Below, piece after piece: positions 10,281-28,082 of a stretch of DNA of 64,000 bases. The stretch covers positions 43,388 to 107,387 of the forward strand of contig CAZDSX010000001.1 of NCBI GenBank assembly GCA_964508305.1, read 5' to 3'. Source of the DNA: an uncultured Bacteriovorax sp. Its GTDB lineage: Bacteria; Bdellovibrionota; UBA1018. Positions within the stretch are counted from its first letter, which is position 1. Every line of letters starts with the position of its first letter. Made by a program: the position numbers and the translations under genes. The notes beneath the pieces were generated by a model, which was given only the letters and a program-made list of their open reading frames with translations, did no database searches and was not told the origin of the DNA.

Positions 10281-10369
10281 ATTAGCGAGCCTTTAGCCCT
10301 CCTTGCAACAAAAATAAGCCGATGATATTCCATCGGAATTCCTTATTTCCTCAAGGGAGAAAGCACCCG

Positions 10370-11782
10370 ATGTCCACGCATCAGACCCATGCATCCCGGC
10401 TCGTGAGTTCCCCGCAGTTTGTCAGCGCTCGTGACCAGCTCATCGAGTTGGTCGGCCATGCAAGCAGCGCGATCACTGGTGTGCGCCCGGCCGAGTCGGC
10501 CGAACTGAAGAGCAGGTACCAGGAGCTTCTCTCGCAATTCCAAAAGGACCGGGGAAGGGAACTTTTCTTTCCGTACCTTGCCTCAGGCCTTGGGCGCGGG
10601 CCCTGGGTGGAGCTCGAAGACGGAAGCGTCAAGTACGACATGATTACGGGCATCGGCATCAGCTTTTTTGGCCACTCGCACCCGGAGCTGATGCGTGCAG
10701 CCATGGACTCGGTTTCGGCAGACATCTACCAGGGAAACCTCGAGCCAGGCATCGAAGTGGCGCAACTCCTTCGGGCGATTCTCTCCCGCGTGGAGGGATC
10801 CTCCCGGTTGCGCAAGGGCTGGGTGACGACTTGCGGCACAATGGCCAATGAGATCGCGCTCAAGATCATTCGCCAGAAAAAGTTTCCCGCCACCCGCATC
10901 ATTGCCTTCAACGACTGCTTTGCTGGCCGCTCCACGGCCATGCAGGAAGTGACTGACAACGCCAAGTACCGTGAAGGGCAGCCGACATATGGCGAAGTCA
11001 GCTATGTGCCCTTCTACGACCCCAAGCTCGGAGTCGAGCGATCGGTCGAGAATACCCTGGCCGCGCTTGAGTCCCACCTGGCGCGTGCTCCCGGAAAATA
11101 TGCGGGCCTCATGATCGAGCCCGTCCAGGGAGAGGGTGGCTTCAACTTCGCCCCGCGCGAGTATTATGTCCGGGTCTTCGAAGCCGCTCGCAAGGCGGGG
11201 CTCGCCATCTGGGCAGATGAGATCCAGTCTTTTGGGCGCACCGGGAGTTACTTTGCCTTCCAGACCTTTGATCTGGGCGAATATGTGGATGTGGCCACAG
11301 CAGCCAAGATGCTCCATGCCTCGGTCGTGTTGTTCACTGAGGAGTTCAACCCCAGGCCGGGATTGGTGGCTGGAACATTTACGGGCACCTCGTCGAGCCT
11401 CAGTGTGGCGCGGCGGATCGTTGAGCTCCTGGACCAGGGCTACCATGGCCCCGGCGGTCATGTGGCCCGACTCTCATCCCGGTTTGCGGCAAGAATCGAG
11501 GAAATGGCGCAGGGGTCCTGCAAGGGCCTGATCGGCGAGTGGCGAAACATCGGGGGGATGATCGCGCTCCAGCCACTTTCTGGAACCCTGGACGAGGTCA
11601 AGTCCGTGCTCATGAAGATGTACGAACTTGGAGTGGTGGCATTTTATTGCGGACATGGGCCCATACTGATCCGGATGCTGCCGCCGCTCGGGGCGATGAA
11701 CGAGGAACAGGTCGATGAGGTGTGCTCGATCATCGAGGCGGCAATTCTCGAAGTCTCGAAAAGCAGAAAGACAGGGAACTGA
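10370..11782 (+). CDS. class-III PLP-dependent aminotransferase (AstC analogue; N-terminus resembles lysine 6-aminotransferase family)
   Basis: GPW...GIGISFFGHSHPEL, MANEIALKI, EPVQGEGG, ADEIQSFGRTG (class III aminotransferase motifs including the PLP Lys region). RBS gggagaaag before ATG 10370. Confidence 0.75.
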   Translation: MSTHQTHASRLVSSPQFVSARDQLIELVGHASSAITGVRPAESAELKSRYQELLSQFQKDRGRELFFPYLASGLGRGPWVELEDGSVKYDMITGIGISFFGHSHPELMRAAMDSVSADIYQGNLEPGIEVAQLLRAILSRVEGSSRLRKGWVTTCGTMANEIALKIIRQKKFPATRIIAFNDCFAGRSTAMQEVTDNAKYREGQPTYGEVSYVPFYDPKLGVERSVENTLAALESHLARAPGKYAGLMIEPVQGEGGFNFAPREYYVRVFEAARKAGLAIWADEIQSFGRTGSYFAFQTFDLGEYVDVATAAKMLHASVVLFTEEFNPRPGLVAGTFTGTSSSLSVARRIVELLDQGYHGPGGHVARLSSRFAARIEEMAQGSCKGLIGEWRNIGGMIALQPLSGTLDEVKSVLMKMYELGVVAFYCGHGPILIRMLPPLGAMNEEQVDEVCSIIEAAILEVSKSRKTGN

Positions 11783-11784
11783 AC

Positions 11785-13275
11785 GTGCGCCAGCTCATTG
11801 AAGAGGCAAGGAAGATCATCTCGATCCCGTCCGTGACGGTGGACGGAAACGAAGAGCTTGCCAACTATGTTTCAACCCTGATGCGCGCCCGCGGCCTCAA
11901 GGTCCAGCTCCAGCAAGTGGGCCACTCGATCGACGGAGTTTCGAAGAGGCAGTTCAATGTCCTCGGTGTTTTTGGCGACCCACTGGTCGATAAAAAGACG
12001 CGCAAGGGGCTCCTCCTGCTCACCCATCTGGACACCGTCGGTCCCGGCAGACGCGAGAACTGGACGGAGACCGGTGGGGACGCCTTTGCGGCAGCCGTGA
12101 AAGACGGAAAAATTTATGGCCTGGGCTCGGTTGACGGGAAACTCGACTTCCTCGCCAAGCTCCGAGCCATCGAGAAGTTCCGGGAGCGGAAACTCAAGAT
12201 GCCGATCTACCTGGTCGGAAGCTGTGGAGCCGAGCTGGGAATGTTCGGCACGAAGTACCTGATCAAGTCCATGGCCCTCAATCCCCGGTTCGTGGCAGTG
12301 GGTGAGCCTTCGGAGCTCAAGGTCGTGTATGCGCACAAGTGTTACAGCATCTTTCGCGTGGCGATCGGCTATTCAAGGGTTTCAAAGGACGCCAAGGGTT
12401 TCAATCGGCGCGTTTTGCTAAAGGCCTTTGGACGTTCGGCCCACGGAGCCTATCCCGAGCAGGGGGTGAACGCGATCCTGCGCCTGCTCGAATTCATCCG
12501 CGTGGCGACGGAGGCTGGTTTTGACGTCAGGCTCACCCGTTGCTCCGGTGGCGACACCGTCAACAAGGTTCCAGACCAGGCGGAGGCCGAGTTTTTCGTG
12601 ACCTCCCACCAGCTGGAGGACTTCAAGCGCTTCTTCACCGACTATTGCCGGGACTCCGGGCTTTCGGATGCTTTCGTGGCGGAGTTCGGGGGGCTTGGAG
12701 AGAGTGGCGTCCAGTTTCTGCCCGAGCAGGTGTTCCAGGCGCTCTGTGATTCCGTCGGACTCTTTGGCCAGTTCTCGGCAGAGCTTGGCGCAGAGTCGGA
12801 TGAGACATTTGAGCCCCCGCATTCAACGATCAACTTTGGGCAGCTTCGTGAGAGGCCGAACGTCATGGAGCTTCTTTTTGACGTGCGCCTGCTCCCCGGC
12901 GTGTCGCCTGAACAGGTCGAGGCACGGATTATCGGAGCCTTTCAGCAGCTCTCGACGCACTACCCGGGCCTCAATCTCTCGGTTGTGAGGGAGAGGATGA
13001 ACCCCGGGCTGGGAATGGGCTGGGAGCACGAACTCATGCGGATTTGCAGGGCTGCAGTGGTTGAGTCCGGCCTTCACGACGGCGAAAGGGGTTTTGCAAA
13101 GATGGCCACATCTACCGAAGCGGCCCAGTACTTCCTTGCTGGATATGAAGCCATTGTCTTCGGCCCGGGCAGCTCACAGGGCAACAGCCACGGACCGAAT
13201 GAGTACAATTGGATTGAACAGCTTGAGAAGGCCACACGGTTCTACGAAAAGCTCATCGAGAAGACCTGCGTATGA
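11785..13275 (+). CDS. M20-family amidohydrolase (ArgE/DapE-like; candidate N-succinyl-amino-acid desuccinylase)
   Basis: GTG start 3 nt after the upstream stop. M20 motifs LTHLDTVGPG, GLGSVDGK, and a dimerisation domain with FGRSAHGAYPEQGVNAI. Confidence 0.7.
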   Translation: MRQLIEEARKIISIPSVTVDGNEELANYVSTLMRARGLKVQLQQVGHSIDGVSKRQFNVLGVFGDPLVDKKTRKGLLLLTHLDTVGPGRRENWTETGGDAFAAAVKDGKIYGLGSVDGKLDFLAKLRAIEKFRERKLKMPIYLVGSCGAELGMFGTKYLIKSMALNPRFVAVGEPSELKVVYAHKCYSIFRVAIGYSRVSKDAKGFNRRVLLKAFGRSAHGAYPEQGVNAILRLLEFIRVATEAGFDVRLTRCSGGDTVNKVPDQAEAEFFVTSHQLEDFKRFFTDYCRDSGLSDAFVAEFGGLGESGVQFLPEQVFQALCDSVGLFGQFSAELGAESDETFEPPHSTINFGQLRERPNVMELLFDVRLLPGVSPEQVEARIIGAFQQLSTHYPGLNLSVVRERMNPGLGMGWEHELMRICRAAVVESGLHDGERGFAKMATSTEAAQYFLAGYEAIVFGPGSSQGNSHGPNEYNWIEQLEKATRFYEKLIEKTCV

Positions 13276-14309
13276 TCCTTCTTAGGGAAGTCCAGGAGCG
13301 CGATCTGGGAGACTTGGAGCGCCTCGCGCAGGTCCCGGGATTCATCAACCTGCAGGGCGATCGAGATTTGTTGCGCGAAAAGATCAAGCGCTCCCGGGAC
13401 GCCTTCCTCGGCCGGGTGGATGATCCGAGCGAGCGAAAATTCATCTTCGTTGCCGAGGATCTCGAGCGTGGTGCGGTCGTGGGCACCTCGATGATTGCCT
13501 CCCAGCACGGAAGTCCGGAGTCGCCGCACTTTTATTTTCAGGTGGGGAATGAAAAGCGATTCTCCGAGTCCATTGGAACAGGCTTCATCCACGGAACGCT
13601 TGAGCTCAAGTTTGAGTCCGATGGTCCCTCCGAGCTTGGTGGGCTTGTGCTTGACCCGGAGTCCCGCAACCTCACGGCGCGCCTCGGGAGACAGATCTCT
13701 TTTGTGAGGTTCCTCTACCTTGCCCTGCATCGCGAGCAGTTCAAGGACCGGCTGATTGCGGAGCTCCTTCCGCCCCTCAATAAAAAGGGCCAGAGTCCGC
13801 TCTGGGAGGCAATCGGCCGGCGATTCACCAACATGGACTACTGGGAGGCCGACCAGCTTTGCCAGAAGGACAAGGAGTTCATTTTCTCGCTCTTTCCGTC
13901 AGGCAAGATCTACACGACGTTCCTGACCGCAGAGGCACGCAACGCGATCGGAAAAGTGGGCAAGGACACGGAGCCCGTGGTCCACATGCTCAAGAAGGTG
14001 GGGTTCAAGTACCTCCAGCAGGTGGACCCGTTTGACGGAGGTCCGCACCTCTGGTGCAACGTGGATGATTTGCTGCCCGTTGGAAAGCTCGCTAGAGCCG
14101 AGTATCGCGGCGCAAGTGCAGGAAGCGGTGAGTTTGCGCTCATCTGCGGAGAGCGGCAGTCTCCTGGTGAATTCAGGGCGATGTGCGTGCCCATCCATCA
14201 TGAAGGAGCCGCGGTGACGGTTGGAATCACCGAGCCAGAGGCCAAGACCATTGAGTCCGCCCTCGGGCTGCGCCCGGGCGAGCGTGTCGCCGTGATGCCG
14301 TTTTATTGA
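13272..14309 (+). CDS. astA: arginine/ornithine N-succinyltransferase AstA family
   Basis: MILLREVQERDLGDLERLAQ...GFINL, FIHGTLELKFESDGPSELGGLVLDP, YLQQVDPFDGGPHLWCNVDDL track the AstA family over the full length (345 aa). 4-nt overlap with the upstream gene. Confidence 0.85.
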   Translation: MILLREVQERDLGDLERLAQVPGFINLQGDRDLLREKIKRSRDAFLGRVDDPSERKFIFVAEDLERGAVVGTSMIASQHGSPESPHFYFQVGNEKRFSESIGTGFIHGTLELKFESDGPSELGGLVLDPESRNLTARLGRQISFVRFLYLALHREQFKDRLIAELLPPLNKKGQSPLWEAIGRRFTNMDYWEADQLCQKDKEFIFSLFPSGKIYTTFLTAEARNAIGKVGKDTEPVVHMLKKVGFKYLQQVDPFDGGPHLWCNVDDLLPVGKLARAEYRGASAGSGEFALICGERQSPGEFRAMCVPIHHEGAAVTVGITEPEAKTIESALGLRPGERVAVMPFY

Positions 14310-14318
14310 GGAGTCGCC

Positions 14319-15836
14319 ATGTTCAAGGGTGATTTTATTTCTGGTCGTTTCTCTCCCGTTCCTGCGCAGGGCCGAAGCGCCGAGTGGACGCTCAAGAGCC
14401 CCGCCGATTTTGGCGACGTGATCGGGGATGTGGCTTGTTCCTATGCATCGGTAGAGCGGGCCGTGGAGGCGGCACGCCTTGCCTTTCGCACCTGGCGAAG
14501 GACGCCCTTGTCCGAACGCATTAGTGCGCTCAAGAGGTACCAGGAGCAGATCAAGCTTCGCGAAGACCAGCTCATTCGGATCATCTCGCGAGAGGTGGGC
14601 AAGCCCCTCTGGGAGTCCCGGACGGAAGTGGCCTCCATGCTGGCCAAGGTCGATATCTCGATCCAAGACGGGCTGAAGCTCGTCTCGGACTATTCCATTG
14701 CGTCGATCATGGAAGGCACTGACGGTGTTTGTCGCTTCAGGCCACACGGAGTGATGGCCGTCATTGGCCCGTTCAACTTTCCCGGACACCTTCCCAATGG
14801 TCACATTGTTCCTGCGCTCCTGGGTGGGAATACGGTGGTCTTCAAGCCATCGGAGAAGACCCCAGGCACGGCGCAGGTCATGGCCGAAGCCTTCGAGGCC
14901 GCAGCTTTTCCCGAGGGGGTTTTCAACCTGGTGCAGGGCGAAAAGGAAGTGGGTCGCCGTCTCTGTGTGCATCCCGATGTTGCGGGCGTGCTTTTCACCG
15001 GCTCCTATGAGGTGGGCACCCGCATCAAGCAGGATACCCTGCTCCAGCACTGGAAGATCCTTGCGCTTGAGATGGGCGGAAAGAACGCCACGATCGTCCT
15101 CAAGGATGCCGATCTTGGGGTGGCGCTTCAGGAAACCCTGGTTTCAGCCTTTATCACGGCAGGCCAGCGTTGCAGCGCAACGAGCAGGGTGCTTGTGCAC
15201 GAATCCCTTCTTCCCGAGTTTCTGGAGAAGCTTCACGCCAGGGCAAAGGCGTTTGAAATAGGCCACTGGTCAGAGTCCGTATTCATGGGCCCGCTGATCG
15301 AACCAGCAGCCGTAGATCGCTATACGAAGTATCTGGGGATCGCAGCACGCGAGGGCTGTGAGATGGTCATGCGCGGGAAGGCTCTCGAGCTGCAGCGCCC
15401 GGGCAACTACGTTGCGCCCTCCATTGCGTGGGTGAAGAATCCCTCGATTGAGTCCACTCGCAAGAGCGTATTCCAGCAAAGCGAACTCTTTGCGCCCTGC
15501 CTTGCCGTCCTCGGATTCAGGGAGCTTGAGGAGGCCGTGGCGCAGGCCAACGAGACCCAGTTCGGGCTCGTTGCCAGCGTGTTCACGCGCGATCGCGCGG
15601 CATTCTTGGCCGCGCGCGAGGATCTTGAGATGGGTCTGGTCAACTGGAACAAGTCCACCGTCGGGGCCTCATCACGGCTTCCATTTGGTGGATTCAAGAA
15701 GAGTGGAAACCATTTTCCCACGGCAGTGGCCGCCAGCCAGTACTGTGCTGCGCCCGTGAGCTCACTTGAAGTGGTGGAGCCCAAGGCGCCCGCCCTGGTG
15801 GCGAAAGCCTATCCGGGGTTGAATTGGGATACCTAA
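14319..15836 (+). CDS. astD: N-succinylglutamate 5-semialdehyde dehydrogenase AstD
   Basis: RFRPHGVMAVIGPFNFPGHLPNGHIVPALLGGNTVVFKPSEKTP is near-identical to the AstD signature. ALDH catalytic region ILALEMGGKN...FITAGQRCSA. Confidence 0.9.
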   Translation: MFKGDFISGRFSPVPAQGRSAEWTLKSPADFGDVIGDVACSYASVERAVEAARLAFRTWRRTPLSERISALKRYQEQIKLREDQLIRIISREVGKPLWESRTEVASMLAKVDISIQDGLKLVSDYSIASIMEGTDGVCRFRPHGVMAVIGPFNFPGHLPNGHIVPALLGGNTVVFKPSEKTPGTAQVMAEAFEAAAFPEGVFNLVQGEKEVGRRLCVHPDVAGVLFTGSYEVGTRIKQDTLLQHWKILALEMGGKNATIVLKDADLGVALQETLVSAFITAGQRCSATSRVLVHESLLPEFLEKLHARAKAFEIGHWSESVFMGPLIEPAAVDRYTKYLGIAAREGCEMVMRGKALELQRPGNYVAPSIAWVKNPSIESTRKSVFQQSELFAPCLAVLGFRELEEAVAQANETQFGLVASVFTRDRAAFLAAREDLEMGLVNWNKSTVGASSRLPFGGFKKSGNHFPTAVAASQYCAAPVSSLEVVEPKAPALVAKAYPGLNWDT

Positions 15837-15845
15837 CAAACAGAA

Positions 15846-15880
15846 TGGGCGGATCGGTTTCCCGATCCGCCCATTCTTGA
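15846..15880. terminator. perfect 15-bp-stem hairpin between convergent astD and cspA (bidirectional terminator)
   Basis: aatgggcggatcgg-tttc-ccgatccgcccatt, followed on plus by cttgattac..ctttttatta. Confidence 0.5.
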
Positions 15881-15899: not shown

Positions 15900-16106
15900 T
15901 TAGTTGGCGCGCATCACGTTGGAAGCCTGAGGGCCCTTGGGGCCGTCAATGAGGTCGAAGTCGACCTTCTGGCCTTCCGCGAGGGTCTTGAACCCCTCTC
16001 CCTGAATCGCGGAATAGTGCACGAACACATCGCGATCCTGGCCGTCAGCCTGGATGAACCCGAAACCCTTGCTATCGTTGAACCACTTTACCAATCCAGT
16101 TGCCAT
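15900..16106 (-). CDS. cspA: cold-shock protein CspA family
   Basis: [64 protein letters not shown] (RNP1/RNP2 motifs). Roughly 100-nt 5' leader upstream (16107-16210). Confidence 0.9.
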
Positions 16107-16286: not shown

Positions 16287-17642
16287 TCAGCGCCCGGCGA
16301 CCGGAATTGCCCCGCCCGTTCCGTACAGGAGACCGCCAGGGGCAAAGAACTGCTGGCTCTGCTGTGTGGGGGCCTGTTGCTGCATCTGCTGCATGATCTG
16401 CATCTGGGCCTGTGCAGCCTGCTGGTTGGCGACTTCAAGGATTCGCGTTGGCTGCGACACCGCAATCTGGCGCAGCTGGGTGCAGCGCTCGAATGATGCG
16501 CGATCCGACTTGTTGCATGCGCTCGCAAGATCCTTCTGCATGTCGCGATGGAAGGAGACGAAGTCGGGGTTCTGCATCAGCATCTGTTGGAGCACGGGCG
16601 CTGGAACGCCCTTGGCGACCTGTTCACGAGCGAACGCCGAAAGCTTGGCTGCCGTCAGGTTCCCGCGCATCTCGAACGCACCGAGCTGGGCGCGGCGGCG
16701 CATCGCATCCGACAGTTCGCCCGACTCGCCGAGCTCGGTGAGGATCTCCAGTGAGCGCTCGTTGGAGCTCACCGAGAGAGGGTTGGTCTCTGCAAGTCGG
16801 CGCGCAAGCTCCAGGCGGAGCTCGGCTGCCTTCTCTGCCGCCTTGGGGCTCGACTTATTGCGCTCAAGCCAGAACCTAATGTCTTCGTCCACCGCTTCAA
16901 GGTCCGAGCCCTTGAGGGAGGCAACCTTCTTCTTGAGGACCGCAAGCTGGCTGTCGGAGATGCTCTTGCGCAGGTCATCCGCCTCTACGTCATCGAGTTT
17001 GCCGCTGTCCACGAGTTGACGGATCGCAGAAAGCGCGCGGAGGTTGTTTTCCTCAGACCCGCGGCAGGTCTTGGCAATGTTCATCAGGCGCTCGAGGCGC
17101 TTTTCCTCGGCAAGCTGGCGCTCCCGAGCTTCCCTCGCGTCACGAGTCGCGACTGACTCGAACTTGAGGTCCGATCCAACCGAAGCCCTGCGCCAGACTG
17201 CAGGATCTTCGCTCTTGTCTTCCCAGGTAAAGCCAATGGAGACATCCCGGTCCTGCACCCCGATCGAGGTGCCGCCGACCATGCTGAGCCGTGAAAATAC
17301 CGACTCGTCTCCGAGGGCTGCCCCGGGGTGTGCCAGCTTCTGCTGGTTGATACAGCTCGCGAGCTGGTCAGAAGCCTGGATGCGGAAATCCTCGGTTCCG
17401 CCGTCTGACTGCCGGGAGGAGAAAATCACATGCGGGAGGCACTCGCGGTACATGAAGCCCACGAGGCCCACGCTGGTGCGGGTGTCGTTGACCTTGGCTC
17501 CCAGCTTCTGGAAGAGCGAGCTTGCCTCGGACCAGGACAGATCGCGAAGCTTCGGGGCCTGCGTGGTCTCTTCGCCTCGTGCGGTGATCGCCAGAAACAT
17601 GGCGCTCAGCATCAAAAACTTATGGCCGTGGGAGATCTTCAT
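16287..17642 (-). CDS. secreted hypothetical protein with coiled-coil region and Gln-rich C-terminus
   Basis: RBS aGGAAG before ATG 17642. Signal peptide MKISHGHKFLMLSAMFLAITARG. C-terminus QQAAQAQMQIMQQMQQQAPTQQSQQFFAPGG. High GC3. The N-terminal extension in the tool ORF is rejected. Confidence 0.5.
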   Translation of the reverse strand: MKISHGHKFLMLSAMFLAITARGEETTQAPKLRDLSWSEASSLFQKLGAKVNDTRTSVGLVGFMYRECLPHVIFSSRQSDGGTEDFRIQASDQLASCINQQKLAHPGAALGDESVFSRLSMVGGTSIGVQDRDVSIGFTWEDKSEDPAVWRRASVGSDLKFESVATRDAREARERQLAEEKRLERLMNIAKTCRGSEENNLRALSAIRQLVDSGKLDDVEADDLRKSISDSQLAVLKKKVASLKGSDLEAVDEDIRFWLERNKSSPKAAEKAAELRLELARRLAETNPLSVSSNERSLEILTELGESGELSDAMRRRAQLGAFEMRGNLTAAKLSAFAREQVAKGVPAPVLQQMLMQNPDFVSFHRDMQKDLASACNKSDRASFERCTQLRQIAVSQPTRILEVANQQAAQAQMQIMQQMQQQAPTQQSQQFFAPGGLLYGTGGAIPVAGR

Positions 17643-17817
17643 GGGTCTACCTCTTTCTTTCTCTCTGCCATGATGCAGAGCAACACCCGGGCCAATGCCG
17701 GCCGGAATTGCCCATTGGTAAGCGCCGCAAAACCTGATAAAAAACAGACACATAAACCGTGTCAGGTCAGACACAGGCCAGCCCCTTTTGGGTGCCGGTG
17801 TTGACGGGCTGGAGGCG

Positions 17818-17834
17818 TGTCGAAAGTTTCGACA
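17818..17834. promoter_or_regulatory. perfect palindrome TGTCGAAA-G-TTTCGACA 31 bp upstream of kdd start; candidate operator
   Basis: 8-1-8 inverted repeat seen directly. It lies in the divergent promoter region with a TTGACG -35-like hexamer at 17801 and a second IR GTGTC-N6-GACAC at 17759-17774. Confidence 0.35.
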
Positions 17835-17864
17835 GGGCCTTCGGTCGTTTTCCAGGAGCCAACC

Positions 17865-18908
17865 ATGTCCTTTCGACCCGCAGATGCCCTTGGTTTGCAG
17901 AGAGTGATCGAGCCGCGCGGCGTGGGAGCGCTCCCCCAGCAGGCCGAGCGCGTGGATCCTTCGCTCCCGATCGCCGAAGACGAGCTCCTCGTTGAGGTCG
18001 AAAGTCTCAACATCGACTCAGCAAGCTTCCATCAGCTCTCAAAGGCAGCCGAAGGCGACCCGGCCCGACTCGAAGAGTCGATCCGCGCCTTGGTGCGTTC
18101 GCGCGGAAAGCATCACAACCCGGTGACGGGCTCGGGCGGGATGCTCATCGGCACGGTCAAACAGGTTGGCCCGAAGTTTCCCGTCGATAAAAAGCCCGTC
18201 AGGCCGGGGGACCGGATTGCTTCACTGGTTTCGCTCTCGCTCACGCCGCTTGAGATTCGCAAGATCAAGAAGATCCACATGGGGATCGACCGAGTGGACA
18301 TCGAGGGACACGCCATCCTCTTTGCCTCGGGGCTTTTTGCGCGCCTCCCCTCGGACCTTCCCGAGACGGTGGCGCTTGCGGTGCTCGATGTGGCGGGCGC
18401 ACCGGCACAGGCCAGAAGGCTCGCGCGCGCCGGTGAGGTGGTGTTTGTCGTGGGGGGCGGTGGAAAGTCCGGGGTCCTTTGCCTGCATGAGGCCAAGAAA
18501 AAAGGGGCAATCACGATTGCCCTAGATTATTCGGACGCCGCTATTGCGCGCCTTCGCGGACTGTCTTTTGTCGACCATGTGATCCAGGGGGATGCCCGCA
18601 AGGCAGTGGAGGTCATGGAGCGAGTGCGAGCCATTACCGGAGGAAAGATGGCTGACGTGGTGATCAATGTCGCCAACATCCCCGAAACCGAAATGGCGTG
18701 CGTGCTTTCCGCACGCGATCGCGGTCTGGTCTATTTTTTCAGCATGGCCACGAGCTTCACCCGCGCGGCACTGGGTGCCGAGGGCGTAGGGGCGGACATT
18801 GAGCTTGTGATTGGCAACGGATACACGGCAGGTCACGCCGATCTGGCACTCCAGGTCCTTCGTGACAGCCCGGAACTCAAAAAACTTTTCACTGAGACAT
18901 ACTGTTAG
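17865..18908 (+). CDS. kdd: L-erythro-3,5-diaminohexanoate dehydrogenase
   Basis: RVIEPRGVGALPQ, ELLVEVESLNIDSASF, NPVTGSGGMLIG, IASLVSLSLTPL, LDVAGAPAQ, VYFFSMATSFTRAALGAEGVG, IGNGYT. This is colinear with characterised Kdd of lysine-fermenting anaerobes. AGGAG RBS before ATG 17865. Confidence 0.85.
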   Translation: MSFRPADALGLQRVIEPRGVGALPQQAERVDPSLPIAEDELLVEVESLNIDSASFHQLSKAAEGDPARLEESIRALVRSRGKHHNPVTGSGGMLIGTVKQVGPKFPVDKKPVRPGDRIASLVSLSLTPLEIRKIKKIHMGIDRVDIEGHAILFASGLFARLPSDLPETVALAVLDVAGAPAQARRLARAGEVVFVVGGGGKSGVLCLHEAKKKGAITIALDYSDAAIARLRGLSFVDHVIQGDARKAVEVMERVRAITGGKMADVVINVANIPETEMACVLSARDRGLVYFFSMATSFTRAALGAEGVGADIELVIGNGYTAGHADLALQVLRDSPELKKLFTETYC

Positions 18909-18924
18909 GAGCCGAGGCGACCCC

Positions 18925-20490
18925 ATGGCGCACTTGAACCTGGACTTCAAAAAAGTAGAACGCTGCCGGCAGCTCGCCCGAGAGATCTCGGCTCCCGTCG
19001 AGCAGATGATTGATCGACATTCGACCATTGCGATCGAGCGAGCGACGCTCCGCCTGATCGGCGTTGATGGTGCCGTCCAGCAGGCCCGCCAGGTGGTTCC
19101 CGAAGTGAACATCATCGTCGATGATCTTCAAAAGGCAGGCGCGCTATCGCGAGGGGTGCTCATTCCGTTCGTCAACGGCTTGATCCAAACTGGCCTTGGC
19201 GTGAAGGAGCTCGCAACGCAGGCTGCCTTGCGCAAGGTCAAGCTCTCGGAACTTCCGCCATCCCCGGAAGATGCAATCCGCAAGCGGGTCAAGGAGCTTT
19301 GCCGGCAGGCGGTGGAAGGACTGGATTCCGCCCGCAACCTCAGGGACCGGAATCGCGCGGATTGCGGGGACAGGTTTGATCCTTCCGGAAAGGGCGGCCC
19401 GATTCTCTATGTGATCGTGGCCACTGGAAACATCTACGATGACGTGATCCAGGCCAAGGCCGCGGCACAGGCGGGTGCCGACGCAATCGCGGTCATCAGA
19501 AGCACGGCACAGTCTCTTCTTGATTATGTCCCCCATGGAGCCACGACCGAGGGGTTTGGCGGGACTTACGCCACGCAGGAAAATTTTAGGATCATGCGAG
19601 CTGCCCTGGATGAGGAGGGAAAGCGGCTGGGGCGCTATATCCGACTCACCAACTACTGCTCCGGGCTTTGCATGCCTGAGATTGCGGCACTGGGGGCGAT
19701 CGAAAGGCTCGACTTCCTGCTTAATGACGCGATGTACGGGATCTTGTTTCGTGACATCAACATGAAGCGAACGCTGATCGACCAGCATTTCTCGCGCAAG
19801 ATCATTGCCCGCTCACGGATCGTGATCCATACGGGGGAGGACAACTATCTCACCACGGCAGACGCAACTGAAAATGGCCATCAAGTCCTGGCCTCCCAGT
19901 TCATCAACGAGCGTTTTGCGAGCCACGCCGGGATGTCCGAAGACCTGATGGGTCTTGGTCACGCCCAGGAGATGAACCCTGAACACCCCAATGTGTTCCT
20001 GCTCGAGATTGCCCGAGCCCAGATGACCCGCGATATTTTCCCGCGCTCTCCCATCAAGTTCATGCCGCCCACGCGCCACAAAAGCGGAGACATCTTCTAC
20101 AGCCATCTGATGGATGCGATGTTCAACTTTGTGGGGGTCTTGACCGGGCAAACCATCCAATTACTTGGGATGGCGACTGAGGCGATGCACACTCCGCTCC
20201 TTCAAGACAGGTGGATGAGCATCAAGAACGCCAAGTACATCTTTAACGGGGCCAAGGACCTGGGCGTGGACATCACGTTCAACCCGGGAGGTCTGATCGA
20301 TTCGTGGGCAACCAAGGTGCTCGACGACGCGCTTGCGCATCTCGAGATGATCCACGCCAAAGGGATGTTCCGCGCCATCCAGGAAAAGGCCTTTGCCGAG
20401 GTCAGCCGCCGCGAAGAGGGCGGCAAGGGGCACGACGGTGTGTTCCTGCGAGCGCAGGGCTACCTGAACCCCTTCTTTGAAATCCTTTAA
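18925..20490 (+). CDS. kamD: lysine 5,6-aminomutase alpha subunit
   Basis: LNLDF, SGPLLYVIVATGNIYDDV, AAAQAGADAIAVIRSTAQSLLDYVPHGATTEGFGGTYATQENFRIMR, YIRLTNYCSGLCMPEIAALGAIERLD, GEDNYLTTADA, LGHAQEMNPE are KamD-family blocks. RBS taggag before ATG 18925. The upstream extension in the tool ORF is rejected. Confidence 0.9.
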   Translation: MAHLNLDFKKVERCRQLAREISAPVEQMIDRHSTIAIERATLRLIGVDGAVQQARQVVPEVNIIVDDLQKAGALSRGVLIPFVNGLIQTGLGVKELATQAALRKVKLSELPPSPEDAIRKRVKELCRQAVEGLDSARNLRDRNRADCGDRFDPSGKGGPILYVIVATGNIYDDVIQAKAAAQAGADAIAVIRSTAQSLLDYVPHGATTEGFGGTYATQENFRIMRAALDEEGKRLGRYIRLTNYCSGLCMPEIAALGAIERLDFLLNDAMYGILFRDINMKRTLIDQHFSRKIIARSRIVIHTGEDNYLTTADATENGHQVLASQFINERFASHAGMSEDLMGLGHAQEMNPEHPNVFLLEIARAQMTRDIFPRSPIKFMPPTRHKSGDIFYSHLMDAMFNFVGVLTGQTIQLLGMATEAMHTPLLQDRWMSIKNAKYIFNGAKDLGVDITFNPGGLIDSWATKVLDDALAHLEMIHAKGMFRAIQEKAFAEVSRREEGGKGHDGVFLRAQGYLNPFFEIL

Positions 20491-20514
20491 GACGATCCGG
20501 CCAGGAGAGAAGAC

Positions 20515-21387
20515 ATGTCCTCGAAAGCAGCAGTGGTCGACCTGAAGAAGCTCAAGCCCTATGGCGACATCATGGGGGATGGAACCATCCAGATCTCCTT
20601 TACCTTGCCGGTTGAGCCTTCACCCGAGGCCCGCGAGGCCGCCATCCAGTTGTGTGAAAAGATGGGGCTGGACCAGATCAAGGTTGCCACGATGGAGAAG
20701 GCTGCCGAGGGGTTCGCGCTCTTTGTGGTCTATGCCAATGTCCGCCACACCGTGGACTTTACCAAGATCCATGTCGTCAAGGTCGACGCCCAAAAGCGTT
20801 CACGCGAGGAGATTGATGAGATCATCGCAACCCAGATTGGACGAAAGCTCGTCGTCATGGGGGCCTGCACCGGGTATGACGCCCACACCGTGGGCATCGA
20901 TGCCATCATGAACATGAAGGGCTTTGCCGGGGACTACGGGCTGGAGCGCTACCAGTGGATCGACGCCCGAAACCTGGGCGCGCAGGTATTGAATGATGAG
21001 CTCCTGAAAAGGGCGGTTGCAGAAGGGGCGGATGCGATCCTGGTTTCCAAGGTGGTGACCCAGCACAACATCCACATGCGCGACATGAAGGATCTCATGA
21101 ACCGTGCAAGGCAAATGGGCCTGCTCGAGAAGATCATCTTCGTTGCCGGTGGCCCTCGCGTCACTCATCCTCTCGCACTGGAGTGTGGGTTTGATGCGGG
21201 CTTTGGAGTGGGAACCAAGCCCTCGGACGTTGCCAGTTATATTGTCGAGGAATTCATCAAGAGGATGTCCGCCCAGAAGCAGCCCGCCCCCGCTCCACAA
21301 GCGCCAAGGGCAAAACCAAAGGCCCGCGGAAAGCCGAGTCCGAAGCCCAAGGGCACTTCGCGTGCGGGCTTGCGCAAACGCCGCTAA
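20515..21387 (+). CDS. kamE: lysine 5,6-aminomutase beta subunit (B12- and PLP-binding) with an extra ~45-aa basic Pro/Lys/Arg-rich C-terminal tail
   Basis: KLKPYGDIMGDG.IQISFTLPV, B12 DxHxxG motif GACTGYDAHTVGIDAIMNMKGFAG (with the PLP Lys), ILVSKVVTQHN, IFVAGGPRV. Tail QKQPAPAPQAPRAKPKARGKPSPKPKGTSRAGLRKRR. Confidence 0.9.
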   Translation: MSSKAAVVDLKKLKPYGDIMGDGTIQISFTLPVEPSPEAREAAIQLCEKMGLDQIKVATMEKAAEGFALFVVYANVRHTVDFTKIHVVKVDAQKRSREEIDEIIATQIGRKLVVMGACTGYDAHTVGIDAIMNMKGFAGDYGLERYQWIDARNLGAQVLNDELLKRAVAEGADAILVSKVVTQHNIHMRDMKDLMNRARQMGLLEKIIFVAGGPRVTHPLALECGFDAGFGVGTKPSDVASYIVEEFIKRMSAQKQPAPAPQAPRAKPKARGKPSPKPKGTSRAGLRKRR

Positions 21388-21409
21388 GGCATGAGAATCG
21401 GGCACAAGC

Positions 21410-22339
21410 GTGATGAAAAAATCCTCTCCCCAGCCAAAAGCCAAGCCGAATAAAAAGACCGCCACACCGTCACACCTGCTCGTCGGTCGTGGGCAGGAGT
21501 CCGCCTCGGTTCGCGCCTGCCTTGAGGCAGGTCGCAACGTGCTCCTGGAGGGGCCTGTCGGAGTGGGAAAAACCCAGCTCGCCCTGTCCATTTGTGAGGG
21601 GGCAGGACGCAAGGTTTTTCGCGTCGATGGAGACGGAAGGTTCACGGAGCAAAAGCTCTCGGGCTGGTTTGATCCGCCACTTGTCATTAAATTTGGTTAC
21701 TCCGCCAAATCCTTCGTTGCGGGCCCTCTCGTGGAGGCGATGATAGAGGGAGGGATTCTCTTTATCAACGAGCTCAACCGCCTCCCGGAAGGCGTACAAA
21801 ACGTGCTTCTTCCGGCAATCGACGAGCGTCGAATCGTGGTCCCACGCCTGGGACAGGTGGTGGCTGCCGATGGCTTTGCCGTTGTTGCAACACAGAACCC
21901 GAAGGAGTTCGTTGCCACCTCTCACCTGAGCGAGGCGATCTTGGATCGCTTTGAGCTCGTCGTTCTGGATTACCAGAGCGAGGAAGAAGAGCGAAAGATC
22001 GTCTCCCGCACGGTATCGGATGCAGTTTTGGTGGAGGCCTCTGTGAGGCTTGCCCGGATCACCCGCAATCATCCACGCGTCAAGCGTGGTGCTTCAGTTC
22101 GCGCAGCCCAGGCTGTAGCTGAGATCGCCCAGGCCTTGCTCGCGGGACGAGGCTCAGTCCCAAGCCGCCGCGAAGCATTTGTGGCCGCCGCACTCATTGC
22201 CCTTCCCACGCGTATCGAGATTGAACGGGATGCAGACTCCACGCAGTCGCACGCAGCCGAGGTCTCTTCCTTGGTTGAGTCCTGCGCCGAATCGGCAATG
22301 TCGGGCGAGGAGATGGTCGCCTCAAAAAAAAAGACCTGA
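21410..22339 (+). CDS. MoxR-family AAA+ ATPase
   Basis: Walker A LLEGPVGVGKTQLA, Walker B ILFINELNR, ATQNP...LSEAILDRF sensor/arginine-finger region typical of MoxR/RavA-like ATPases. 309 aa. Confidence 0.8.
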   Translation: MMKKSSPQPKAKPNKKTATPSHLLVGRGQESASVRACLEAGRNVLLEGPVGVGKTQLALSICEGAGRKVFRVDGDGRFTEQKLSGWFDPPLVIKFGYSAKSFVAGPLVEAMIEGGILFINELNRLPEGVQNVLLPAIDERRIVVPRLGQVVAADGFAVVATQNPKEFVATSHLSEAILDRFELVVLDYQSEEEERKIVSRTVSDAVLVEASVRLARITRNHPRVKRGASVRAAQAVAEIAQALLAGRGSVPSRREAFVAAALIALPTRIEIERDADSTQSHAAEVSSLVESCAESAMSGEEMVASKKKT

Positions 22340-22437
22340 CTGAGCGCCAACAGGGGGCGGAGCAGGCGCAGCCCTTCAAGCGAGCGGAGATCCAGTTCTC
22401 ACCCCCGGAAGAGTCCGGGGGGCTTCTTGATCCCGGA

Positions 22438-23307
22438 ATGGAAGCTGACGACGGGGAGATGCTCGATGCGGGAGTGTCGAGCGCCTGGGATGTGGCCACG
22501 CGCTACCATGAATTCAAGGCCAAGCCATCGCTGAAGAAGGTGGCCCACCATCTCCGCGAGATCTCCACGGAGGCGATTCTTGAAAAGGCGCGCTCGGTGT
22601 TGGGGTCCGTCGTGCATCCGACCAAGGTGGATCTTTCACCCTGGGACAGCGTGCCCGCCTCGGCCGAGGGTGTCGAGCTTGAGCTTGATGAGACCACTGA
22701 AGGTGCGCCTGGAATCTTGCGTGGGGACGTGGTGTCGGCAAGCCAGCTGATCATGGAGTACCGCACTCGAAGGGTCCAGCCAGTGATCATCGCGGTAGAT
22801 ACGAGCCTGTCGATGACTGGAGAAAAGCTTGCGCTCACCGCCGTGGCATTAGCCGTTGTTCTGCTGCAGTTTCCCGAGGACCCCATCGGGATCGTTGCCT
22901 TTGAAAACCGCCCCCAGGTGCTCAAGCTCCCCAGTGAACGGATCAGCGTGCGGGAGCTGATGGCGAGGTTCCTCGATGTGCCGGCTCAGGGTTACACGCA
23001 CCTTGAGTCAGGGATTCAGGAGGCCCTCCGCCTGGTGGGTGAGACCGAGGCCCGAGGTGGAGGACGCCCACCGGCAGTGCTGCTGCTCACGGACGGAAAA
23101 TACACGGCCGGTCGAGACCCGGCTTATCTTGCACCGAGGTTCAGGCAGCTCAATGTCATGAAGATGGGACCCGAAAAGTCGAGTTTACCACTCTGCCGCG
23201 ATCTGGCGCATCGCGGTGGGGGCAGCCTCAGAGAGGTCGCCGAGCTCGAATCCCTGCCAGCGGCAATGTACGGCGTCGTGAAGGATCTGCTTCGCGGCAG
23301 GCGATGA
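22438..23307 (+). CDS. von Willebrand factor A (VWA) domain protein, partner of the MoxR ATPase
   Basis: MIDAS motif IIAVDTSLSMTGEK. ...VLLLTDGKYTAGRDP. The frame is open upstream back into the moxR 3' end. Confidence 0.75.
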   Translation: MEADDGEMLDAGVSSAWDVATRYHEFKAKPSLKKVAHHLREISTEAILEKARSVLGSVVHPTKVDLSPWDSVPASAEGVELELDETTEGAPGILRGDVVSASQLIMEYRTRRVQPVIIAVDTSLSMTGEKLALTAVALAVVLLQFPEDPIGIVAFENRPQVLKLPSERISVRELMARFLDVPAQGYTHLESGIQEALRLVGETEARGGGRPPAVLLLTDGKYTAGRDPAYLAPRFRQLNVMKMGPEKSSLPLCRDLAHRGGGSLREVAELESLPAAMYGVVKDLLRGRR

Positions 23308-24260: not shown

Positions 24261-26234
24261 TCAGGTGGCCTGGTCCATCAGTTCGGCGATGTCCATGACC
24301 TTGACCTTGTCGAGCATCTCTTTGCTCTTCACGCCGTCAGTCATCATGGTCATGCAGAACGGGCACGAAGAGGCAACGATCCCTGCGTGGGTCTCGAGGG
24401 CTTGCTCGGTGCGCGTGATGTTGATGCGCTTCCCGATGTGCTCTTCCATGAACATGCGGCCCCCGCCGGCGCCGCAGCACATCCCGGAATCCCGGTTTTG
24501 TTTCATCTCCACCAGTCGCGCAGAGGGAATGGACTCAATCACGGTGCGCGGCTGCTCGTAGACGTTATTCCAGCGTCCCAGATAGCAGCTGTCATGGAAG
24601 GTGATCGACTCATCGACCCCCTTGGTGGGCTTGAGCTTTCCGTCCTTGATCAGCGAGGCAATGAACTGGGAGTGGTGGAATACTTCGTAGGTTCCGCCAA
24701 AATCCTTGTACTCGTTCTTGATCGTGTTGAAGCAATGCGGACAGGCAGTGACGATCTTCTTGATGCCATGGCGATTGAGCGTCTCGATGTTGGCTTGTGC
24801 GAGCGTCTGGTAGAGGTATTCGTTTCCGATGCGGCGAGCCGGATCGCCCGTGCACTGTTCTTCGTTGCCCAGGATTGCAAAGCGGATCCCGGCCTTCTTG
24901 AGGAGAGACACAAAGGAGCGAAGCACCTTCTTGTTGCGGTCATCGAATGAGCCCGCGCAGCCCACCCAGAGCAGGACATCAATCTCGGGGCTTTCGGCCA
25001 TGGTGGGTACCGAAAGACCCTCGGACCACTTGTCGCGATCGGCAGAGCTGAATGCCCAGGGGGTGGCGTTTGTTTCGAGATTCTTGAAGATGGTTCCGAT
25101 GCCGTCGGGCATCTTTGACTCCATCATCACAAGATTGCGGCGGATGTCGAAGATCTTGTCGGTCTGCTCGATGAAGACAGGACATGCGATCTCGCAGGCG
25201 CGGCAGCTGGTGCAGGCCCAGATGACGTCTTCGGTGATGTCCTTTCCGATCAGCGGCTTGAGCTCATCGGTCTTGCCGGCAAGGATGGCGTCCTTGTTCT
25301 CGTAAAGGTTGTGCTTGATGTCGAGGACCAGGAGCTTGGGGCTAAGCGGTTTCTGGGTGTTCCAAGCAGGACAGAGATCCTGGCAGCGCCCGCATTCGGT
25401 GCAGGCGTAGGTGTCGAGCGTGTCCTTCCAGCCGAGGTCCGTGATTTTTGCGGCGCCATATTGCGTGACACTCTCGTCCGCAAAATTGATCGGGCGCATG
25501 GCCTTCTCGCGAGTGAGCTGGCGCAGGAAAGTGTTGGGCCCTGCCGCAATGATATGCAGGTGTTTGGAGTGCGGGATGTAGGCAGCAAAGCCAAGCACAA
25601 ACAACATGTGCACCCACTTGAAGGCGGTGGCCATGGCCGCATTGCCCTCTGCGCTCAGCCCAAACCCGAGGAATGCATCCGCCAGATGCCGTGAAAAGAT
25701 GAAGTGCTCGGCATGGCCTGCCGCAGTGCTCAGGATCTGGAACCCGTTCATGCACAGGATCGAGATCATGAGCGAACCCGTGAATGTGAGCACGATGTTG
25801 GCGTCGCGCGATTGCCCGAGGCCTTCTGGCCGGATCACCAGGCGCCGGTAAAAGGCTCCACCCACGGCAAAAAGGATGGCTACCGTGAAGAAGTCCTGGA
25901 CCGAGATGAGCGGACCGTAGACGGGACCGAGGAACTCGAAGCTCCAGCTCGTGTTGAGCGTGGAGGCGAACTGTTCAAGGGTTCCAATCGTGATGATGAG
26001 AAAGCCCCAAAAGATGATCGTGTGGAGGATCCCGATCCCCTTCTTGCGCAGAACCGCCTTCTGCCCAAGGACGTGGATTGCCGTGTCGATGATGCGGGCG
26101 GGGATGTCGGTCAGGCGATTGCGGACGGGGCCCTTCTGGGCCTTGAGCATCTCAAAGAGGATCTTGAAGCGAAGCCCCGAGTAACCAAAAGCCGCACCAG
26201 CCACCAACAAAAAGGCGAACGTTTGCCATGTCAT
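24261..26234 (-). CDS. membrane-bound FeS oxidoreductase of the ETF:(mena)quinone oxidoreductase type (NarI-like b-type TM domain + 2x[4Fe-4S] + two CCG cysteine-rich domains)
   Basis: N-terminal TM helices, CTECGRCQDLCP and CTSCRACEIACP ferredoxin motifs, and C-terminal HdrD/GlpC-like CCG domains (CPHCFN..., MCCGAGGG). 657 aa. Located next to etfAB. Confidence 0.8.
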   Translation of the reverse strand: MTWQTFAFLLVAGAAFGYSGLRFKILFEMLKAQKGPVRNRLTDIPARIIDTAIHVLGQKAVLRKKGIGILHTIIFWGFLIITIGTLEQFASTLNTSWSFEFLGPVYGPLISVQDFFTVAILFAVGGAFYRRLVIRPEGLGQSRDANIVLTFTGSLMISILCMNGFQILSTAAGHAEHFIFSRHLADAFLGFGLSAEGNAAMATAFKWVHMLFVLGFAAYIPHSKHLHIIAAGPNTFLRQLTREKAMRPINFADESVTQYGAAKITDLGWKDTLDTYACTECGRCQDLCPAWNTQKPLSPKLLVLDIKHNLYENKDAILAGKTDELKPLIGKDITEDVIWACTSCRACEIACPVFIEQTDKIFDIRRNLVMMESKMPDGIGTIFKNLETNATPWAFSSADRDKWSEGLSVPTMAESPEIDVLLWVGCAGSFDDRNKKVLRSFVSLLKKAGIRFAILGNEEQCTGDPARRIGNEYLYQTLAQANIETLNRHGIKKIVTACPHCFNTIKNEYKDFGGTYEVFHHSQFIASLIKDGKLKPTKGVDESITFHDSCYLGRWNNVYEQPRTVIESIPSARLVEMKQNRDSGMCCGAGGGRMFMEEHIGKRINITRTEQALETHAGIVASSCPFCMTMMTDGVKSKEMLDKVKVMDIAELMDQAT

Positions 26235-26325
26235 AGAGTGCCTAACAGTTTAAGCGCGCGGCCTATCTGCAGCAACCGAGAACGGCAAAGGATGGCTTGA
26301 GGCCAGAAAATTGGCGCTCGAGAGA

Positions 26326-27294
26326 TCAGTGCTCCTTGAGCTTCTTGAACTCGTCTTTCAGAAGCGGCGCCACGGCAAACAGGTCTCCCACGATCCCGTA
26401 GTCGGCCACCTGGAAGATGGGCGCCTCGGGGTCGGTGTTGATGGCCACGATCACCTTGGAGGTGCGCATGCCGGCCAAGTGCTGGATGGCTCCGCTGATC
26501 CCGCAGGCGATGTAGAGATTGGGGGAAACGACCTTGCCGGTCTGGCCCACCTGGTCGCGGTGCGGGCGGAAGCCTGCGTCCACGGCTGCGCGGGAGGCGC
26601 CGACGGCTGCGCCGATCGTATCAGCCACTTCTTCGAGGATCTTGAAGTTATCGGCGTTCTTGAGCGAGCGACCGCCCGAGATCACGGTTCCTGCCTCGGT
26701 CACATCCGGACGTCCGGCCTGGCCCTGGACCACTTCGGTCACTTGGGTCGTCACGCCGGAGAGCGACACTGCCACGGTCTGGACGGCAGCTGACTTGGAG
26801 GTGTCCGCCTTGGGCATGCCCAGGGCGTTTGCGCGAACGGTCGCAAGCTTTGGGCCCGCGCCCAGGAATTCCACTTCGACCGTGGCCTTGCCCGCATAAA
26901 CCGGGCGGCGGGCCACGATCCCGTTTCCTTCAAACTTGAGGCTGATGCAGTCGGTGGCAAGCCCCGCGCCGAGACGGGCTGCGACCTTCGGCATGAAGTC
27001 ACGGCCGGTCGGTGAGTGGGCGGCCAGGATCACGTCGGGCGAAAGCGCCTTTGCGACCTGCACCACGACCTGGCTGTAGGCCTCGGCCGTGTAGAACTTC
27101 AGGCCCGCATCGTTTGCGACGTGGACCTGGGCGGCACCATAGTGTCCAAGTTCGGCAGCAAGGCCCTGGATGCCTTCTCCGAGGAGGAGGACATGGGTTT
27201 CGTTGCCTGCGGCGCTTGAGGCGCCGACGAGTTCAAACGAAGTCTTCTTGAGCTTGGAATCGCGCTGTTCGGCGATGACGAGTACTTTTGCCAT
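26326..27294 (-). CDS. etfA: electron transfer flavoprotein alpha subunit
   Basis: [10 protein letters not shown]..., FAD-binding C-terminal region [34 protein letters not shown]. Confidence 0.9.
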
Positions 27295-27296
27295 GA

Positions 27297-28070: not shown

Positions 28071-28082
28071 AAGTGGCCCTAT

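Follow-up and report, generated by a model that had tools for sequence, protein, structure and literature searches.

The question raised by this locus is what function can be assigned to four consecutive genes that resemble part of the arginine succinyltransferase (AST) pathway and are accompanied by neither astB nor astE. The genes encode a class-III aminotransferase, a protein of the M20 metallohydrolase family, an AstA-family N-acyltransferase and an AstD-like aldehyde dehydrogenase (ALDH), and they are found in a 64,000-nucleotide stretch of contig CAZDSX010000001.1 from an uncultured Bacteriovorax sp., the whole of which is referred to here as the window. Our preferred reading, which we hold at a probability of about 0.45, is that these genes form an AST-type succinyl shuttle that would start after the AstB step and would convert ornithine, or a similar amine, to glutamate in a predatory bacterium of the Bdellovibrio type (Bdellovibrionota; Oligoflexia/Bdellovibrionia).

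Gene order and a proposed succinyl shuttle

Open reading frame (ORF) and Pfam analysis placed all four genes on the forward strand in the order aminotransferase-M20-astA-astD, as stated in the original prediction that drew attention to this locus (Table 1), with Aminotran_3, Peptidase_M20 together with M20_dimer, AstA and Aldedh as their respective domains. The aminotransferase and M20 genes are separated by a 2-nt gap, the M20 and AstA genes overlap by 4 nt (ATGA) and the AstA and ALDH genes are separated by a 9-nt gap. This near-zero spacing shows that the four genes form one operon, which is closed by a strong predicted terminator hairpin 6 nt past the ALDH stop codon. The hairpin lies just downstream of a convergent cspA-like gene and, from its predicted structure, can terminate both the operon and that gene. 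The ratio of non-synonymous to synonymous substitution (dN/dS) was 0.04–0.06 for all four genes, similar to the flanking genes, in comparison to the related locus L091 (84–89% protein identity), values that are approximate as synonymous sites are near saturation. A short palindrome, CCGATGATATTCCATCGG, was also observed. It precedes the aminotransferase start by about 35 nt, within the intergenic region between this gene and a divergent SH3-domain gene, and could be an operator or an attenuator.

Table 1. Features of the window at and around the four-gene operon.
Feature	Position	Strand	Details
Palindrome	10319-10336		
Class-III (omega) aminotransferase	10370-11782	+	470 aa; ATG behind AAGGGAG ribosome-binding site; PF00202, 161 bits
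M20 metallohydrolase-family protein	11785-13275	+	496 aa; GTG is the most plausible start; PF01546 and PF07687
AstA-family N-acyltransferase	13272-14309	+	345 aa; ATG overlaps the M20 stop (ATGA); PF04958, 310 bits
AstD-like NAD-dependent ALDH	14319-15836	+	505 aa; PF00171, 419 bits
Predicted bidirectional intrinsic-terminator hairpin	15842-15877	no strand	16-bp stem, 10 G-C pairs
cspA-like gene	15900-16106	-	
Gene for a 495-aa protein	16287-17774	-	no Pfam or NCBIfam match
kdd, kamD, kamE, MoxR-type AAA ATPase and VWA protein genes, in a row	17817-23307	+	
Fe-S/CCG oxidoreductase, electron transfer flavoprotein (ETF) alpha and beta, class-I/II aminotransferase, dapB, dapA and lysA-like decarboxylase fragment	24261-32196	-	fragment is of the ornithine/arginine/diaminopimelate (DAP) decarboxylase type

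By sequence comparison the ALDH appears clearly nearest to AstD, by more than 110 bits against solved structures and by 150 bits against family models. Its nearest solved structures are three AstD entries (332–344 bits), followed by the next structure at 218 bits, and its NCBIfam scores were 455 for PRK09457 (cut-off 514) and 436 for TIGR03240 (cut-off 579), with the next family at 305. The protein is 40.5% identical to AstD of Escherichia coli K-12, whose ast operon proteins served as the reference for identities and for the AstB and AstE searches, and it carries both catalytic motifs, LEMGGKN and GQRCSA.

The aminotransferase had been likened to lysine 6-aminotransferase (LAT) on account of a GPW...FF motif in its N-terminal region. 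The motif itself is present (ELFFPYLASGLGRGPWVEL ... ISFFGHSHP), but it forms part of an ordinary class-III aminotransferase N-terminal region, and a LAT-like identity was rejected as unsupported because no LAT occurred among the 60 best solved-structure matches, whether the single sequence or a profile of 19 orthologues was used. Gamma-aminobutyrate (GABA) and acetylornithine transaminases were the best solved relatives in the single-sequence search, at about 90 bits, and with the 19-orthologue profile PuuE/GABA transaminases and acetylornithine transaminases scored about 145 bits in comparison to 103 bits for AstC (4adb); identity to E. coli AstC is 25%. The pyridoxal phosphate lysine K313, the substrate-carboxylate arginines R187 and R435 and the DEIQ motif are invariant in the 19 orthologues. 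The protein is most readily seen as an intact omega-transaminase of its own divergent lineage, placed between the GABA and acetylornithine transaminases, and this lineage was found only adjoining an AstA-like gene.

The predicted lack of astB and of a canonical astE in the cluster was borne out by tblastn, as the E. coli queries gave no match better than E = 1 in the whole window, and 88 related loci, inspected with flanks of at most 10 kb, contained none at E ≤ 1e-6. Among the remaining large ORFs of the window, Pfam identified flagellar, envelope, lysine-biosynthesis, ETF, polyphosphate and housekeeping genes, and no domain in these ORFs matched AstB, AstE, KamA, Kce or Kal. This outcome bears on a more conventional explanation, in which the host would degrade arginine by the usual AST route, its astB and astE genes would lie in another part of the genome, and the M20 gene would stand beside the module as an accessory or unrelated gene. 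Arginine is a substrate of canonical AstA enzymes, and the inspected sequence amounts to 64 kb of this genome and at most 10 kb on either side of AstA in relatives. We nevertheless regard this explanation as very doubtful, given that no AstB or AstE homologue stands beside the module in any of the 88 loci inspected across the phylum, that the 4-nt overlap of M20 and AstA genes recurs in every M20-containing locus, and that the equivalog thresholds for AstA, AstC and AstD were all missed.

We infer all four steps of the proposed shuttle from homology. In the first, the substrate, a basic amino acid and most probably L-ornithine, would be succinylated on its alpha-amino group by the AstA-like enzyme, after which the class-III aminotransferase would transfer the terminal amino group to 2-oxoglutarate and yield N-succinylglutamate 5-semialdehyde. 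The NAD-dependent AstD-like dehydrogenase would then convert this semialdehyde to N-succinylglutamate, and desuccinylation, the weakest step of the scheme, would release glutamate and succinate. In relatives whose co-translated M20 protein has an intact active site, that protein is the evident candidate for the last reaction. The window copy has no general-base glutamate and may have low activity, follow a different mechanism or act chiefly as a partner of the AstA-like enzyme. Prey-derived ornithine, or arginine once its guanidino group has been removed, would in this way end up as glutamate and succinate, the predator's main respiratory fuels.

An ornithine shuttle is the most economical interpretation because of the identity and tight order of the genes, the affinity of the ALDH to AstD and a precedent in Acinetobacter baumannii, in which a partial second AST operon without astB (AstO/AstN, with AstP) was demonstrated genetically to be ornithine-specific (PMC12375414). 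The M20 protein is nearest to ArgE, an N-acyl-ornithine deacylase, and this too was counted in favour of the ornithine shuttle, as were the invariant catalytic and carboxylate-binding residues of the aminotransferase, the low dN/dS of all four genes and the absence of AstB and AstE from the window and from the related loci. The reading also fits a predator unable to make arginine and respiring mainly glutamate, as the metabolic model of Bdellovibrio bacteriovorus describes this species as an arginine auxotroph that respires mainly glutamate (PMC7529429). Of the original proposal of a succinyl shuttle for ornithine, lysine or another diamine, the AST-like character and the absence of astB and astE were retained, with the ornithine type the most economical and the AstO/AstN case as precedent, whereas the LAT resemblance and the link to the kdd-kamDE genes discussed below were not.

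A biosynthetic role in arginine or DAP formation was also considered in view of the dapA, dapB, aminotransferase and lysA-like fragment at 28–32 kb and the ArgE/DapE-like M20 protein, and was rejected because an NAD-dependent ALDH is a catabolic enzyme and B. bacteriovorus cannot make its own arginine. The alternative N-succinylglutamate synthase of a 2026 GapMind preprint is an unrelated protein.

The AstA-like acyltransferase and the M20 protein

A number of observations weigh against the ornithine shuttle, and many of these concern the AstA homologue and the M20 protein. It is important to note that all four proteins scored under the curated NCBIfam cut-off of their respective best model. 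In addition to the ALDH scores given above, the aminotransferase reached 147 for its best model (cut-off 552) and 79.9 for the AstC model TIGR03246 (cut-off 610), and the M20 protein reached 169 for the ArgE model (cut-off 298), in two pieces. The AstA homologue scored 223 for the AOST subfamily (cut-off 284), 200 and 186 for the AstA models TIGR03244 and NF007770 (cut-offs 391 and 521) and 170 for the AruF model TIGR03245 (cut-off 459). The description of astA and astD as unmistakable was thus too strong, and for astA the wide margin of the missed cut-offs is joined by a change at a residue assumed to be catalytic. Gly230 of the AstA homologue, which is 33% identical to E. coli AstA, aligns with the predicted catalytic His229 of the E. 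coli enzyme, a position that is also His in AruF (1yle), the sole solved-structure match of the homologue (108 bits). Joint mutation of the predicted catalytic His229 (E. coli numbering) and L125 was reported to inactivate A. baumannii AstA (PMC12375414), and L125 of the E. coli protein is conserved in the window homologue.

The glycine is shared by many relatives. When 1.84 billion cluster representatives were searched exhaustively with HMMER, 1817 AstA-family members were found, and among the 117 full-length representatives nearest to the window protein, counted together with that protein and E. coli AstA, the His229 column was occupied by Gly in 79, His in 16, Ala in 9 and Ser in 7 sequences. 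A profile built from the more distant Gly-type members retrieved mostly Myxococcota proteins, and the AstA homologue is a member of a large, uncharacterised PF04958 branch that extends over Bdellovibrionota and Myxococcota. A single PF04958 gene, as opposed to an AruF/AruG-type pair, was present in the window and in each of the 88 related loci. No AST operon context was found around the Myxococcota Gly-type genes among the loci inspected; their neighbours were polysaccharide deacetylase and TPR genes, an M23 peptidase gene with an unrelated 358-aa M20 gene, or unrelated genes (L087–L090). These contexts hint that the Gly-type branch may act in something other than the catabolism of arginine or ornithine, and the label 'arginine N-succinyltransferase', when applied to the window protein, would reflect only its membership of the family. 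An ancient AstA-M20 pairing common with Myxococcota was also considered and rejected, as the neighbouring M20 protein of Myxococcaceae is only 24% identical over part of its length and the other Myxococcota loci have no M20 gene.

The M20 protein is a member of a lineage-specific family in which an ArgE-like core is combined with a duplicated lid. For this family 626 matches were obtained, nearly all of about 493 aa and with 56–89% identity among the best 120. E. coli ArgE is its best solved relative by sequence, at 76 bits in two blocks that leave about 110 extra M20 residues at positions 211–319. In an AlphaFold2 model computed with 24 orthologues (mean pLDDT 86.8) two successive lid units were seen, each of beta-beta-alpha-beta-beta-alpha topology. 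Foldseek ranked ArgE first for this model (E 5e-29), and its best global superposition was with the two-lid dipeptidase PepD (2qyv; TMq 0.70, in comparison to 0.58–0.61 for ArgE).

The window protein has all the di-metal ligands (H81, D117, E150, E174 and H469). Where E. coli ArgE has its general-base glutamate, E144, the window protein has Ala149, giving CGAE in place of the family CGEE. The same alanine is found in an 89%-identical orthologue, encoded by a different codon (GCC and GCT), and for this reason it is not a sequencing error. With a dN/dS of 0.038 in comparison to that orthologue, the gene appears to be under strong purifying selection despite Ala149. Synonymous sites are saturated in most other orthologue pairs, and the strongly degenerate copies (≤62% identity) are too divergent for such a comparison. 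All seven surveyed active-site positions, the general-base glutamate included, were canonical in 111 of 150 family members, and the remaining 39 (about 26%) had at least one substitution at a metal-ligand or general-base position, which also tells against a simple desuccinylase role. Three to five active-site substitutions are present in several of these (for example L026, L034, L016 and L008), which are still full-length and retain the overlap with AstA, and substitutions were also seen in L027 and L035. Degenerate copies occur even in loci that keep the aminotransferase, AstA and ALDH genes (for example L016, L026 and L027), a further point on the unfavourable side.

The 4-nt overlap of the M20 gene with the AstA start was found in the window and in every M20-containing locus, which argues for co-translation and not for chance adjacency. 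In most relatives the M20 protein is a plausible desuccinylase, but on its active-site residues it cannot be assumed to be one in the window genome. The claim that an M20 enzyme replaces AstE was consequently upheld in part: an ArgE/DapE-type M20 protein does occupy the expected place of the desuccinylase, but the window copy has no general-base glutamate and many orthologues are degenerate. The pattern of degenerate sites suggests an additional, non-catalytic role, and the degenerate yet full-length and AstA-overlapped copies would fit a pseudoenzyme.

The distribution of these genes among relatives was also examined. The AstA homologue has hundreds of relatives at 60–78% identity, of which the named ones are metagenome-assembled genomes of Bdellovibrionota, Oligoflexia or Bacteriovoracaceae. 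A scan with one genome per species gave 572 relatives, the best 80 of which were all from Bdellovibrionota, and these 80 together with loci from other searches were annotated by tblastn and ORF clustering. The AstA-like gene holds a constant position across the phylum, where flgK-flgL-csrA-fliW and, on the opposite strand, TPR and BamD genes lie upstream of it. Among 63 loci with enough flanking sequence the arrangement aminotransferase-M20-AstA-ALDH was found in 19, aminotransferase-AstA-ALDH in 8, M20-AstA-ALDH in 6, AstA-ALDH in 2 and M20-AstA in 1, and AstA stood alone in the other 27. The recurrence of the first three arrangements counts in favour of the AST-type shuttle, and the solitary genes count against it. 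The full four-gene operon is conserved in one clade of Bdellovibrionota and is built from divergent lineages of all four enzyme families, while the aminotransferase-AstA-ALDH arrangement recurs in two deep branches of the phylum. Lone AstA genes (L036–L085, Bacteriovoracia) are usually preceded by a fast-evolving ORF of 225–274 aa without a Pfam match, which holds the position of the aminotransferase and M20 genes of other clades (for example L070, 9323–10000, and L044, 6408–7232). Compared as possible remnants of the aminotransferase or M20 genes, these ORFs gave no hmmsearch match, and one group gave a very weak hhalign match to the C-terminal part of the aminotransferase (E = 0.0027, probability 11%).

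Such observations may alternatively be interpreted as an AstA-like core with a housekeeping role outside amino-acid breakdown, for example in acylating another amine, with M20 mainly as a non-catalytic partner and the aminotransferase and ALDH as clade-specific additions. The shared syntenic position, the frequent solitary AstA gene and the Myxococcota homologues beside polysaccharide deacetylase, TPR or M23 peptidase genes speak for this interpretation, as do M20 orthologues that repeatedly lose metal ligands or the general base while staying full-length and overlapped with AstA, and a window copy that keeps Ala149 under a dN/dS of 0.04. We consider it quite unlikely, as the aminotransferase-AstA-ALDH combination in two deep branches is hard to explain without AST-like chemistry, most M20 orthologues (111/150) keep a complete canonical active site, and a complex of M20 and AstA is itself hypothetical. 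A related and bolder idea, distinctly unlikely in our estimation, is that the His-less AstA and the translationally coupled, double-lid and often degenerate M20 protein could form an undescribed acyltransferase complex of predators. Together with the aminotransferase and ALDH, such a complex would process neither arginine nor ornithine but some other compound, be it a prey polyamine, lysine or beta-lysine, with M20 as a substrate-binding pseudoenzyme and not a desuccinylase.

Two general points complete the case to be answered by the ornithine shuttle, namely that the search for astB and astE in this genome covered the 64-kb window, and that the protein sequences fix neither the chain length of the substrate nor the presence of an alpha-carboxylate.

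The kdd-kamDE neighbours and the choice of substrate

The original prediction proposed a linked route of diamine catabolism through kdd, kamD and kamE, which start 2 kb downstream of the operon. Kdd scores above its NCBIfam cut-off; the annotated kdd start is 17817, and comparison with L091 indicates that the true starts of kdd and kamD are probably 17865 and 18925. Between the operon and kdd lie the terminator, the cspA-like gene and the gene for the 495-aa protein, both genes on the opposite strand, and this arrangement makes kdd-kamDE a separate transcription unit. Among loci with at least 9 kb of downstream sequence, Kdd or KamD was found downstream in 15 of 18 that contain M20 and in none of 26 without M20, the latter including all five aminotransferase-AstA-ALDH loci, and full operons without Kdd or KamD nearby also exist (L001 and L020). 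These counts indicate that proximity follows one clade and not the module, and it is most simply read as shared synteny within that clade. Genes for kamA, kce and kal were not found in the window. A functional link between the operon and kdd-kamDE, by either co-transcription or co-occurrence, was therefore rejected as unsupported in view of the terminator, the opposite-strand genes and the clade-bound linkage.

The same evidence enters into the question of whether the chemistry described above might be applied to another omega-amino substrate, such as lysine (to 2-aminoadipate), beta-lysine, 2,4-diaminobutyrate or a prey polyamine such as putrescine (to GABA), the putrescine variant being analogous to the gamma-glutamyl Puu pathway. 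None of the four enzymes belongs to a curated AST equivalog, PuuE/GABA and diaminobutyrate transaminases resemble the aminotransferase as closely as acetylornithine ones do, with AstC further away, the AstA branch is without the canonical predicted catalytic histidine, and a lysine-type kdd-kamDE cluster is found 2–6 kb downstream in 15 of 18 loci of the window's clade. Against this, the ALDH is clearly nearest to N-succinylglutamate-semialdehyde dehydrogenases and no LAT-like signal was detected. The kdd-kamDE genes moreover form a separate unit behind a terminator and two opposite-strand genes, are absent near all aminotransferase-AstA-ALDH loci without M20, and are unaccompanied in the window by kamA, kce or kal. 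A substrate other than ornithine is on balance unlikely, though it deserves some weight, and the ornithine shuttle is kept as the preferred reading.

Other features of this region were recorded in their own right. Genes for a MoxR-type AAA ATPase and a VWA protein complete the row begun by kdd, kamD and kamE, and the predator that carries them is probably aerobic. Most relatives have an ELFV-family (Glu/Leu/Phe/Val-type) dehydrogenase gene directly before kdd (for example L003, 14987–16126), which is missing in the window, and in L001 this dehydrogenase gene is directly followed by the MoxR-VWA genes without kdd-kamDE. The N-terminus of the 495-aa protein is hydrophobic and its C-terminus is Q-rich, charged stretches of coiled-coil-like character are also present, and relatives carry at its position a counterpart of different size that is poorly conserved. 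The dapA, dapB and lysA-like genes further downstream (Table 1) place genes of lysine biosynthesis a few kb from genes of the lysine-degradation type.

Significance and comparison with known systems

Annotation pipelines label genes of this module 'arginine N-succinyltransferase' and 'succinyl-diaminopimelate desuccinylase', and as a result reconstructions of metabolism in Bdellovibrio-like predators would include an arginine AST pathway, for which the present evidence gives no support. Literature searches for the module, including Bdellovibrio-like organisms and Myxococcus, found no paper describing it. A shuttle for ornithine or another amine, if confirmed, would show how obligate predators pass from a prey-derived basic compound to glutamate and succinate, their main fuels. 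The analysis has also identified a large PF04958 branch in Bdellovibrionota and Myxococcota without the residue assumed to be catalytic in AstA, and an M20 family with repeated loss of its active site while coupled to AstA, and both the His-less branch and the degenerate M20 proteins can be addressed directly in cultivable relatives.

In summary, four known systems may be compared with this operon. The kamDE and kdd genes of lysine fermentation are similar in being found near the operon, a proximity conserved in the window's clade, and differ in forming a separate transcription unit that does not co-occur with the operon outside that clade and is without kamA, kce and kal in the window. ArgE and DapE share the M20 fold and metal ligands with the window protein, of which ArgE is the best relative by both sequence and fold. 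The window protein is about 110 residues longer (496 in comparison to about 380 aa), has a second lid subdomain as in the PepD and PepV dipeptidases and has alanine in place of the general-base glutamate, with about 26% of its orthologues degenerate.

The AST pathway itself (astCADBE in E. coli and aruCFGDBE in Pseudomonas aeruginosa) likewise combines an AstA-family acyltransferase, a class-III omega-aminotransferase and an AstD-type ALDH in one operon, and its implied logic is the same, in that the alpha-amine is protected by succinate while the side chain is oxidised to a carboxylate. The operon described here differs by its lack of AstB and AstE, its order (aminotransferase-M20-AstA-ALDH), its single AstA gene in place of an AruF/AruG pair, the change of His229 to Gly and NCBIfam scores below the cut-offs. 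A parallel in design is AstO/AstN of A. baumannii, an analogous architecture that pairs an AstA paralogue with an AstC paralogue. There AstO, a paralogue of the resident AstA of recent origin, depends on the astD and astE genes of a complete ast operon in that genome, whereas the present operon has its own ALDH, an M20 protein in the place of AstE and an AstA from a distant branch. Both are AST-type modules without astB, and the A. baumannii case shows that an AstB-less design is workable (PMC12375414).

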